Shown in pieces: positions 1 to 4,342 of a stretch of 4,418 nucleotides of DNA (position 1 is its first letter; each line of letters opens with the position of its first letter). The DNA comes from a virus (lineage: Duplodnaviria > Heunggongvirae > Uroviricota > Caudoviricetes), in the IMG/VR virus record IMGVR_UViG_3300010279_000132, positions 1-4,418 of that record; one strand, given 5' to 3'. Position numbers and translations under genes: made by a program. The notes below the pieces were generated by a model, which did no database searches, was not told the DNA's origin, and was given only the letters and a program-made list of their open reading frames with translations.

Positions 1-341
1 GTCAGCCAGTCAGCGCCAGTCATGCGCTTTTCTGCATCGCCATTAGTCCACTTAACCGGTACACCAATAGCCTTCATCGCGATTTCTATTTCCCCGGCAA
101 TGGCGCTTTTTCCGCAACCAGTAAAACCAGAAACAACGACAAGAACTTCGCCTTTGGCTGGTTTTATTTCCCGTGCTTCCAGTTCTGCAATACGCTTTTT
201 GTCTGCTTCCCGTTCATCCAGTAGTGCCAGCACAATCGATGGTGTTACCAGCTCATGGAAAAGGTCCGCGTCAAATCCCCAGTCGTCATGCATTGCCTGA
301 TCTGCCGCTTCACGCAGTGCCTGGTAATTAATTTCGCTCAC
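1..341 (-). CDS. P-loop NTPase, N-terminal 113 codons only; gene continues beyond the window start
   Basis: Minus-strand frame opens with GTG at 341-339, preceded by AGGAGG (348-353) with a 6-nt spacer, and stays open to position 1. Translation VSEINYQALREAADQAMHDDWGFDADLFHELVTPSIVLALLDEREADKKRIAELEAREIKPAKGEVLVVVSGFTGCGKSAIAGEIEIAMKAIGVPVKWTNGDAEKRMTGADWL. A hydrophobic strand (LVVV) followed by GFTGCGKS fits the Walker A pattern GxxxxGK[ST]. Absent from the ORF track, presumably because it is truncated by the window edge. Family not identified. Confidence 0.55.
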   Translation of the reverse strand, partial: MSEINYQALREAADQAMHDDWGFDADLFHELVTPSIVLALLDEREADKKRIAELEAREIKPAKGEVLVVVSGFTGCGKSAIAGEIEIAMKAIGVPVKWTNGDAEKRMTGADWL

Positions 342-582
342 TGGTTGCCTCCTGTTTTTCTGCCTTCAACACCATGCGAGAACCATCATCCAGCTCCCAC
401 GCGATCTCACCACCTTCAGCCATGACCAGTCGCCACACCAATTGAGCAGCCTCATTGGTAACATCACGACCTGGATCATTGCCAACGCGCATACGTCCAC
501 CTTCAACATCGCGCATTTTTGCCAGCATGATAGTTTTTGATAGCGGTGAAAAACCAAGCTGTAGTCGTGCTGAATTACTCAC
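328..582 (-). CDS. hypothetical protein, 84 aa, GTG start
   Basis: ORF-track frame 328..582. GTG start at 582-580 overlaps the TGA stop of the upstream gene (GTGA) and is preceded by AGGAGG with a 6-nt spacer. Its last 14 nt overlap the start of the next gene. No recognisable motif. Confidence 0.55.
   Translation of the reverse strand: MSNSARLQLGFSPLSKTIMLAKMRDVEGGRMRVGNDPGRDVTNEAAQLVWRLVMAEGGEIAWELDDGSRMVLKAEKQEATSERN
337..353. repeat. 17-nt direct repeat, copy 1 (translation-initiation region of the P-loop NTPase gene)
   Basis: Plus-strand CTCACTGGTTGCCTCCT at 337-353 is identical to 578-594. On the minus strand it reads AGGAGGCAACCAGTGAG, i.e. SD + spacer + GTG start + AG. Confidence 0.9.
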
Positions 583-594
583 TGGTTGCCTCCT
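578..594. repeat. 17-nt direct repeat, copy 2 (translation-initiation region of the 84-aa gene)
   Basis: Identical 17-mer CTCACTGGTTGCCTCCT, 241 nt from copy 1. Flanking bases differ on both sides. Confidence 0.9.
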
Positions 595-1052
595 TTGCGA
601 AGCTGGGCGGCGAACTCGTTAAGTGATATGTAGCAATCTCCAAATGTTAACGAACCGCTCGACTGCATATGCTCCATAGCCATCTCCACGCCCTGCGCAC
701 GTACTTCAGCCAGGAAAGCATCGGTGGCTGGGGTTTTGATTTCGTTAAGCGCATCACTGAATCCACCACGCTCCATACCTAGCTCTGCTTCGTAATCGGC
801 ATCGAATGCAGCGTCTTTGCAGAACTTCTTCATCCCCGAACTCTCCGCTGCCAGCGCCGCGCACTTGGCCTCAAGGTTATCAATCGTGATTCCAGCAGAA
901 CGACACTCCCGCAACGCAGCTTCTAGTTTTGATTCAAGTTCACCGAACTTACGGACAAGATATTCAGCGTTTGTTTCGTTAACCTTTAAATCTCGTGGGA
1001 TGCATTTACCTTTCAGAAATCCATCCATCTCAATTAGTGTCATTTGTTTCAT
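579..1052 (-). CDS. hypothetical protein, 157 aa
   Basis: ORF-track frame 579..1052 ([16 protein letters not shown]...). ATG at 1052-1050 overlaps the TGA stop of the upstream small gene (ATGA). Protein-like composition, no stops, no recognised domain. Confidence 0.7.
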
Positions 1053-3295: not shown

Positions 3296-4264
3296 TTAGT
3301 AGGTTATTTTTGTTGCGAATACTTCGCCTTTTACGATGGCTGTTATGATATTTTTAGCAACATCTTCTGATGCGCCAACCTTGATAAGGTCAGCAAGTAT
3401 TTTGTTATTTACTTCTTTCCGGTGAGCTTTATCCTTTGCTCTACGCTCTTCTTCGTCCTTGATTCTTTTTTCTTCTGCTATTCTGGCTTGCTCTTTTGCT
3501 TCAGCCTCGCGCCGGATTCGTTCAGCCTCCTCCTGTGCTTTTCGGCGTTCTGCTTCAATTGCCGCATGCTTTTCTCTTTCAGCTCGTTCTGCTGCCTCTT
3601 TTGCTTCGCGCTGTGCTCGTTGCTCGGCTTCAATGCGTTCACGCTCTGCACGTTCCGCTGCGGCCTTAGCTTCTGCTTCTCGCCTTGCTGCTGCTTCAAT
3701 TTCGGCTTTTGCCTTTGCTTCGGCTTCTGCTCTGGCTTTCTCTTCAGCTTCTCTTTTTAAGCGTTCTTCATGCTCTCGCTTTTCCTGCTCCGCTTTGAGT
3801 CTTGCCTCTTCTCTTTGGCGGTCAAATTCGCGATCCATCAAAATCGCTATTTCATGGTCAGACTCAATTTGCTTTGCGAGAGCTTCAGCTGCTGCCTTAG
3901 CTTCTTCTTCGGCTTTAATCCGCGCCTGTTCTTCCTCATAATCAGTAAGAGGCTGGCGTGCCTTGGCTTTCAGCTCATCAAGGCGATCACGCACTGTCTT
4001 GCGGTTGGCATCAATTAGCTTTGGAATTTCCTTCAGTTCAGCAACAAGGTCTTTGCCAACACCATCGAGATATGTTTTCGTCTGCGCAACTTTATACGCC
4101 AGAGAAGCGATCTCCTTTCTGCCCTTTGCCGTTGTGATATCAGGCACAAAGGACATAACTTCACGTTCAACCTTTTGAAGGATTTCTTCAATCTGGTCGG
4201 CAGACTGAAATACAGTCATTGCATTTGCTTTTTCAATAACAACTAATTCTGTTACTTCACTCAT
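3296..4264 (-). CDS. hypothetical protein, 322 aa, with a long E/R/K/A-rich charged helical (coiled-coil or single-alpha-helix-like) central segment
   Basis: ORF-track frame 3296..4318. I place the start at the ATG at 4264-4262 (MSEVTELVVIEK...), which has GGAGG (4273-4269) 4 nt upstream; the track's upstream ATG at 4318 has no RBS and would span the terminator hairpin. N-terminal about 130 aa look globular, the middle about 140 aa are E/A/K/R-rich, and the last about 35 aa (NKILADLIKVGASEDVAKNIITAIVKGEVFATKITY) are hydrophobic/amphipathic. No transmembrane segment apparent. Confidence 0.85.
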   Translation of the reverse strand: MSEVTELVVIEKANAMTVFQSADQIEEILQKVEREVMSFVPDITTAKGRKEIASLAYKVAQTKTYLDGVGKDLVAELKEIPKLIDANRKTVRDRLDELKAKARQPLTDYEEEQARIKAEEEAKAAAEALAKQIESDHEIAILMDREFDRQREEARLKAEQEKREHEERLKREAEEKARAEAEAKAKAEIEAAARREAEAKAAAERAERERIEAEQRAQREAKEAAERAEREKHAAIEAERRKAQEEAERIRREAEAKEQARIAEEKRIKDEEERRAKDKAHRKEVNNKILADLIKVGASEDVAKNIITAIVKGEVFATKITY

Positions 4265-4276
4265 ATATCCTCCATC

Positions 4277-4303
4277 AAAAAAATTGCCCTCACATTGGAG
4301 GGC
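4277..4303 (-). terminator. candidate rho-independent terminator (tL1-like) on the minus strand
   Basis: On the minus strand: GCCCUC-CAAUGU-GAGGGC (6-bp stem with 5 G:C pairs, 6-nt loop; plus 4286-4303) followed by AA and seven U (plus 4277-4285). The RBS of the next gene begins 3 nt after the U-run. Confidence 0.55.
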
Positions 4304-4342
4304 AAAGAAGATTTCCAATAATCAGAACAAGTCGGCTCCTGT

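Follow-up and report, generated by a model that had tools for sequence, protein, structure and literature searches.

Organization of the locus

The window, that is, the whole stretch of phage DNA analyzed here (4,418 nucleotides), covers the PL (early-left) operon of a temperate phage of the P22/lambda type. All of its genes are on the minus strand and, read in that direction, the order is a hairpin, a 340-aa ORF, cIII, Kil, a Rad52/Erf-type annealase, SSB, Abc2, a 157-aa ORF, a gene for a DUF7446 protein, and an Ea22-like gene. The terminator-like hairpin (4284-4305, minus strand) consists of TTGCCCTC-CAATGT-GAGGGCAA followed by TTTTTTT on the coding strand, and it is just upstream of the 340-aa ORF (3296-4318, minus strand). 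Its position fits that of a tL1-type terminator, a site past which N-type antitermination lets transcription of lambdoid PL operons continue. The product of the 340-aa ORF has a long coiled-coil region rich in E, K, A, and R; it has no Pfam match and matches only PHROGs 1376, 21365, and 17211, to which no function is assigned. The start of this ORF is probably an internal ATG near 4264, and it is the first gene after the hairpin.

The 157-aa ORF (579-1052, minus strand) likewise has no Pfam match and is matched by PHROGs 614, 14548, and 368. The latter two PHROGs also match the N-terminal part of P0019, the best homologue of the Ea22-like protein (see below); this likeness suggests that the 157-aa ORF may be another mosaic relative from the same accessory-gene pool. 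It is followed by the gene of the 84-aa DUF7446 protein (328..582, minus strand; Pfam PF24233, E=1.3e-18).

The last gene, on which this study is focused, has a reading frame (341..1, minus strand) that comprises 113 codons and is still open at the left edge of the window. Its start codon is GTG (341..339), preceded by AGGAGG (353..348) with a spacer of 6 nt, and the DUF7446 gene upstream ends within this frame, in an overlap of 14 nt. The translation within the window is (M)SEINYQALREAADQAMHDDWGFDADLFHELVTPSIVLALLDEREADKKRIAELEAREIKPAKGEVLVVVSGFTGCGKSAIAGEIEIAMKAIGVPVKWTNGDAEKRMTGADWL. From this translation, gapless DNA alignments to the homologous loci L023 and L002, and the homologues including P0019, the frame (1..341, minus strand) would represent codons 1-113 of an Ead/Ea22-like protein of 141 aa.

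An Ead/Ea22-family protein with an acidic leader

The N-terminal region of the protein (residues 2-57; 171..338, minus strand) matches Pfam PF13935 (Ead_Ea22) with E=4.8e-13 and 50.3 bits, against a gathering cut-off of 27, and homologous genes of E. coli are named ead/Ea22-like family protein by PGAP/RefSeq. Thus, although the first-pass annotation of this DNA held that the family could not be judged from 113 residues, these were enough for an assignment: by its sequence, the gene almost certainly encodes an Ead/Ea22-family accessory protein, about 141 aa long, of a P22/lambda-like temperate phage.

The same annotation had described an acidic, helix-like N-terminal segment, and this description was borne out. 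Residues 1-64 contain 15 D+E versus 8 K+R (pI 4.6), and in the AlphaFold model of the 141-aa homologue P0019, which has the same numbering, this leader forms helices at residues 6-18, 27-31, and 34-56. The last of these is short and ends in a KRIAELEAREI hinge. We also agree with the annotation that such a leader is unlike the arrangement in small nucleotide kinases; the leader is the Ead/Ea22 N-terminal region.

In studied Ea22 proteins, a coiled coil links a short N-terminal region to a C-terminal domain that is variable (PMC10834534; PMC7093339), and the proteins are tetramers with dimeric C-terminal domains (PMC10834534). They favour lysogeny, and both the tetramer and the pro-lysogenic effect are known only for the Ea22 proteins of lambda and of some Stx phages (PMC10834534; PMC7093339). 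A terminal K/RGE tripeptide is typical of the family (PMC7093339).

In the N-terminal region and in the helical stalk with a KRIAELEARE-type hinge, the window protein resembles lambda Ea22, P22 Ead, and the Stx-phage Ea22 variants V1-V3. It also shares with Ead/Ea22-like proteins the interchangeable C-terminal domain, the early-left or exo-xis position, and the heavy mosaicism, and the terminal K/RGE is matched by its homologues: all close full-length homologues end in ...IRIKGE, with the end of the window gene itself lying beyond the window. The homologues keep the N-terminus and the hinge, whereas stalk lengths and C-terminal domains differ. The differences from the studied proteins are in these variable parts. 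The stalk is much shorter in the window protein (probably 141 aa) than in studied Ea22 proteins; lambda Ea22 is 182 aa long. The C-terminal domain of lambda Ea22 is a beta-beta-alpha-beta-beta-alpha dimer, and the C-terminal head of the window protein is unlike that. Other carriers of the same head are 170-280 aa long, compared with the probable 141 aa of the window gene.

The end of the gene

When positions 1-341 were compared with complete E. coli genomes by megablast, the alignment was always split in two because in the E. coli genes the N-terminus and the C-terminal part, both the same as in the window gene, are separated by a longer stalk. When the C-terminal part served as the query of a protein search, 205 proteins were retrieved; all of the 120 listed are no longer than 144 aa, and lengths of exactly 140-143 aa are frequent among them. 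P0019, a protein of 141 aa with the same short architecture, matches the window fragment best. Its gene, in locus L023, aligns with the window gene at the DNA level without gaps, with differences at 14 of the 341 coding positions (about 96% identity), and is flanked by exo/bet/gam-side genes and by int, as is classical for ea22 (the exo-xis position). The P0019 frame continues for 28 codons past the position of the window edge (TAIEMYKPTVRIVEVNVPRAAGIRIKGE) and then reaches a stop codon, so that the protein ends with ...RIVEVNVPRAAGIRIKGE. The same ending was found in L002 and L003, and in the homologues the C-terminal part beyond the window reads TAIEMYKPTVRIVEVNVPR...KGE. By comparison with these genes, the last 28 codons and the stop of the window gene probably lie past position 1, giving a total of 141 aa.

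This comparison bears directly on the earlier reading of the gene as a partial, larger NTPase cut by the edge of the window. The closing of the frame just beyond the window had been named in advance as an outcome that would speak against that reading, and by homology this is what was found because the gapless, about 96% identical P0019 gene stops after 28 codons. As a possible split-gene source of missing strands, we also considered an ORF of 63-65 aa downstream; this candidate was rejected, as the 63-aa ORF also follows an Ea22-like gene whose C-terminal domain is not P-loop-like (L005).

A conserved 72-residue module with a Walker A motif

A Walker A-like motif had been noted about 68 residues from the start, and it is indeed present: LVVVSGFTGCGKS begins at residue 67, and residues 72-79 (105..128, minus strand) are GFTGCGKS, as read from the translation and conserved in the homologues. 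The motif is flanked by a hydrophobic strand and a helix (VLVVVS-GFTGCGKS-AIAGEIEIAMKA; helix 78-91 in the AlphaFold model). By itself, the bare pattern [AG]xxxxGK[ST] is weak evidence, with three matches in the six-frame translation of the window versus 0.41 expected per shuffled window. We regard this occurrence as above chance because it is kept in 177 of 180 distinct sequences of the domain, is invariant at about 35% identity, and belongs to a profile that matches APS kinase.

The motif is part of a module of about 72 residues with three hydrophobic stretches, after which the protein ends within 10-15 residues. The first 50 residues of the module (residues 64-113; 1..152, minus strand) are in the window: GEVLVVVSGFTGCGKSAIAGEIEIAMKAIGVPVKWTNGDAEKRMTGADWL. 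Its boundaries were taken from 256 full-length domain matches, from alignments A1, A2, and A3, and from an hhalign comparison with CysC. A profile of the last ~79 residues (A1) was searched against 1.84 billion cluster representatives and matched 480 clusters at E<=1e-3, 390 of them at E<=1e-10. The carriers are enterobacterial, Burkholderia, Ralstonia, and Stenotrophomonas phages and prophages. In 234 of the 256 full matches (263 proteins), at most 20 residues follow the module, which is thus usually at the extreme C-terminus, and the extension preceding it varies from 3 to 432 residues. There are other arrangements as well: in P0117 (89 aa) the module stands almost alone; in gp37 of Burkholderia phage BcepC6B (199 aa) it occupies residues ~30-100 and is followed by about 100 unrelated residues; in jumbo Ralstonia and Burkholderia phages it is internal in proteins of 350-420 aa; and in Stenotrophomonas prophage proteins it is N-terminal and followed by Pro/Gly/Gln-rich linkers and unrelated sequence. 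One of the latter is a 453-aa protein of Stenotrophomonas maltophilia (L028, CP031058.1, region 3622-7362), the gene of which directly follows a diversity-generating-retroelement-like set (Lcl_C target-type protein, bAvd, and reverse transcriptase) and precedes genes for a DNA methylase and an integrase. In phiv142-3, a 100% identical module is part of a 204-aa gene in a context unlike that of the window; phage phiV10 also carries the module.

Among the 256 matches, the rest of an NTPase core was never seen after the module, and the sequence behind it consists of linkers or unrelated regions. Pfam scans of the longest carriers revealed no catalytic partner, the only domains being one Lar restriction-alleviation domain and Ead_Ea22. 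The module is not covered above threshold by any model of Pfam, NCBIfam, or PADLOC, and the three PHROGs that match it are all without known function. A search for remote relatives with the module version of jumbo phage RSL2 found nothing.

Alignment A3 comprises 51 sequences, among them the jumbo-phage versions with 35-40% identity, and its invariant residues are V68, G72, G75, G77, K78, S79, A80, G83, G93, W98, E104, and E127 (P0019 numbering). W98 closes the second hydrophobic stretch, E104 is in the loop after it, and E127 closes the third stretch, VRIVE. This stretch, which in the homologues lies beyond the window edge, is a candidate Walker-B-like element with E127 located 48 residues past S79. 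The search for a Walker B motif proposed in the first-pass annotation gave a divided answer, with a candidate RIVE and its invariant Glu on one side and no canonical full core on the other. Taken together, the distribution and the alignments show the module to be autonomous and mobile, with its Walker A motif and RIVE Glu under strong purifying selection.

Relation to P-loop kinases

Profile comparison by hhalign of alignment A2 with E. coli proteins gave the best agreement for the APS kinase CysC (probability 96%, P=3.8e-9, 35% identity over 40 columns), in which residues 7-46 of the module correspond to residues 29-68 of CysC; after these 40 columns the match stops. The values were P=1e-5 for GntK, P=4e-3 for MinD, P=2e-2 for Adk, and P=0.05-0.8 for eleven non-P-loop controls. 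The best sub-threshold matches in Pfam, NCBIfam, and PDB, which cover the strand-loop-helix region only, are APS kinase, gluconokinase, MinD/ParA/Mrp, ArsA, and UvrA; almost all are P-loop kinases or SIMIBI ATPases. The APS kinase model scores 15-16 bits in Pfam (PF01583, cut-off 21.1) and 15 bits in NCBIfam (cut-off 244). Because of the CysC profile match and these sub-threshold kinase and SIMIBI matches, we take the first half of the module to be a genuine P-loop strand-loop-helix-strand, most similar to that of APS kinase. For the second half, kinases offer no counterpart.

In CysC, the P-loop kinases, and the SIMIBI ATPases, strand 1, GxxGxGKS, helix 1, strand 2, and an acidic turn align with the module. 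However, the lid, the APS/substrate site, and strands 4-5 of CysC are missing from it, and the position equivalent to the DGD of APS kinase (NGD or DGD) varies across the module family. Of the full APS kinase domain (PF01583), which has about 150 residues, the alignment covers only CysC residues 29-68. As a canonical P-loop NTPase, the C-terminal head fails by its size, its core, and its scores against the thresholds: such a core has five or more strands and about 150 or more residues, the module has about 72 residues, no curated family was matched above threshold, and fold searches gave no significant match. Therefore, of the earlier claim of a P-loop NTPase, the Walker A motif stands as real, conserved, and set in a kinase-like strand-loop-helix, but no canonical full core follows it.

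Two AlphaFold2 monomer models were obtained, one of the module alone from a 37-sequence alignment (pLDDT 79) and one of the full 141-aa P0019 (pLDDT 68). In both, residues 78-91, 102-109, and 112-119 are helices, and DSSP detected no beta-sheet or strand pairing in either of them. Neither model thus confirms a P-loop fold; the sheet-less monomer might reflect an obligate oligomer, but also a shallow alignment.

A marginal likeness to another fold was observed in the second half of the module. The stretch VPVKWTNGDAEKRMTGADWLTAIEMYKPTVRI (residues 35-66 of the 82-residue first row of A2, of which the window part is at about nt 1-47, minus strand, and the remainder lies beyond) resembles the metal-binding NTDAEGRL...P strand-loop-helix-strand of M17 leucyl aminopeptidases (PDB profile 3pei_A, E=0.004; NCBIfam, E~0.03). 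With E. coli PepA, hhalign gave P=2.7e-4, 38% identity over 32 columns, and a probability of 41%. The NxDAExR of this stretch is not kept in the jumbo-phage modules, in which the Glu alone is invariant.

Discussion

In lambda and Shiga-toxin phages, the choice between lysis and lysogeny is influenced by Ea22 proteins, and to our knowledge, no biochemical activity has been reported for any of them. None of the Ea22 papers searched mentions a P-loop or Walker A motif in these proteins, and the word searches found the terms together only in unrelated contexts. The gene described here is best filed under the known Ead/Ea22-like family, and what is new is an Ea22 scaffold that carries a minimal P-loop module outside the curated families searched.

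We consider, with a probability of roughly 0.6, that the product is an Ea22-type oligomeric scaffold with a minimal phosphate- or nucleotide-binding head, and not the enzyme of a multi-gene system. The protein would be expressed from the early-left operon of the temperate phage and consists of three parts, namely, the acidic, helical Ead/Ea22 N-terminal region, a very short helical stalk that ends in the KRIAELEARE hinge and may mediate oligomerization by analogy with the studied Ea22 proteins, and an autonomous C-terminal head of about 72 residues. The predicted order in the head is a hydrophobic strand, the GxxGxGKS loop, a helix, a short strand with the invariant Trp, a loop with an invariant Glu, helices, and the RIVE strand. 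The head may bind a phosphate-bearing ligand, most likely a nucleotide, via the Lys and Ser of Walker A, with an invariant Glu possibly coordinating Mg2+. Since 72 residues and three strands are too few for the usual five-strand NTPase core, the head would probably work as a dimer or tetramer that the Ea22 stalk brings together. In an Ea22-type modulator of host or lysogeny functions, such a head could be the effector part, serving as a binder or slow hydrolase and not as a classical kinase or motor. We put ligand binding via the P-loop at about even odds or slightly better, and we find genuine catalytic turnover by the predicted head doubtful.

A size comparable to that of the module is known from the laboratory. 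Designed beta-(P-loop)-alpha polypeptides reportedly bind phospho-ligands (bioRxiv 10.1101/2020.07.30.228619; PMC10119929). As described there, these P-loop prototypes of the Tawfik laboratory are tiny phosphate-ligand binders with Walker A between a strand and a helix, and are like the module in size and in the place of the motif. However, they are laboratory constructs, whereas the phage module is natural and conserved and has the additional W98, E104, YKP, and RIVE. A comparison of the module profile with such a prototype (PDB 6c2u) was not significant (E=3.2). A further-reaching proposal, which is speculative and in our opinion unlikely, is that the module is a natural, autonomous minimal P-loop domain, able to bind or hydrolyse nucleotides only as two to four copies gathered by the Ea22 stalk, and used as an exchangeable effector head by temperate phages from several lineages of proteobacteria. 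It would then, for example, sequester a nucleotide or a nucleotide-derived signal, thereby biasing lysis-lysogeny or host responses, and could be the present-day equivalent of the beta-(P-loop)-alpha polypeptides from which NTPases have been proposed to descend.

Several other explanations have to be weighed against the Ea22-type scaffold with a binding head. A conventional, full-size P-loop NTPase or kinase, with Walker B and the remaining core beyond the window edge, would account for the perfect Walker A after a hydrophobic strand, for the sub-threshold HMM matches to APS kinase, gluconokinase, and MinD/ParA, and for a few database entries (P0029 and P0069) that are named 'ATP-binding protein'. 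It is nevertheless very improbable in view of the end of the L023 gene, the length of the homologues (none above 144 aa among the 120 listed of 205), the 234 of 256 matches that end within 20 residues of the module with no NTPase core in the others, and the end of the CysC match after 40 columns. That the Walker A match arose by chance in an unrelated small domain is just as hard to accept: the bare pattern is common, as the six-frame count indicates, but the motif is kept across hundreds of homologues, and the match of its flanking strand and helix to kinases has P=4e-9, versus 0.05-0.8 for the controls.

Two other alternatives deserve more attention. The head may be a structural or protein-interaction domain that does not bind nucleotides, its P-loop-like sequence being either a relic of an N-terminus captured from a kinase or a mimic used for docking on a P-loop protein of the host, for example CysC. 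In favour of this are a specific match to APS kinase that exceeds those to other P-loop proteins, the size of the domain, which would not accommodate a canonical active site, the lack of a sheet in the AlphaFold models, and the proposed role of Ea22 C-terminal domains as ligands for host proteins (PMC10834534). However, relic P-loops normally decay, and here G72, G75, G77, K78, S79, and the RIVE Glu are the most conserved residues, even in the jumbo phages at about 35% identity. An invariant Walker A together with the RIVE Glu is the pattern expected of a working phosphate-binding site; we therefore judge the relic or mimic to be unlikely, while still a serious candidate. Alternatively, the module might bind nucleic acid through the backbone phosphates of ssDNA or RNA, and not free nucleotides, alongside the neighboring recombination functions. 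Recombination and replication genes usually adjoin it (the annealase, SSB, and Abc2 here; an exonuclease and DUF2815 in BcepC6B), the module is mildly basic (pI 8.2), and designed P-loop beta-alpha polypeptides reportedly have helicase-like functions on nucleic acids (bioRxiv 10.1101/2020.07.30.228619). This linkage is, however, positional only and within a mosaic early region, the module is also found in a nin-like region before the terminase genes, and it has no known DNA-binding motif. We regard this alternative as improbable.

The last gene had also been proposed as the enzymatic component of a system encoded together with the upstream small genes. This proposal finds little room, as those neighbors are the usual, independently mosaic early-left genes of P22/lambda phages, and elsewhere the module is located behind quite different neighbors. 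With the full-length homologue, the module, and the two upstream genes as queries, PADLOC (E<=1) gave no defence-system match. Thus, the reading as a partial NTPase and enzymatic component is largely deflated, and a conserved, undersized P-loop module remains.

The invariant Walker A head gives this Ea22 subfamily a concrete and testable handle, namely, nucleotide or phosphate binding. If the Ea22-type scaffold with a binding head is correct, a conserved three-strand, 72-residue P-loop module exists well below the size of the kinases compared (E. coli CysC, Adk, and GntK, 175-214 residues), and such a P-loop fragment can be maintained by selection. For annotation, a Walker A motif at a contig edge does not necessarily indicate a truncated ATPase.

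Exchange of genes behind DUF7446

The same DUF7446 protein elsewhere precedes Ea22-like genes with other C-terminal domains. In loci L004-L011 (genes from 5242), which represent different prophages, an identical DUF7446 precedes Ea22-like genes whose stalks and C-terminal domains occur in at least four variants. Disruption is seen in several of the Ea22-like genes, with truncated N-terminal fragments of 60 aa followed by separate ORFs and a second Ea22-like gene. Judged from these sequences, the comparison shows the spot behind DUF7446 to be one of very active recombination.

A 17-mer comprising the RBS, the spacer, and GTG (AGGAGGCAACCAGTGAG; AGGAGG-CAACCA-GTG-AG) is identical at the starts of the Ea22-like gene (337..353, minus strand) and the DUF7446 gene (578..594, minus strand). 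These are its two exact matches in the window, with none expected from 200 shuffles, and both of the starts that bear it overlap the preceding stop codon. As a possible module-boundary sequence common to both genes, the repeated 17-mer may promote translational coupling and the recombinational shuffling of accessory genes.
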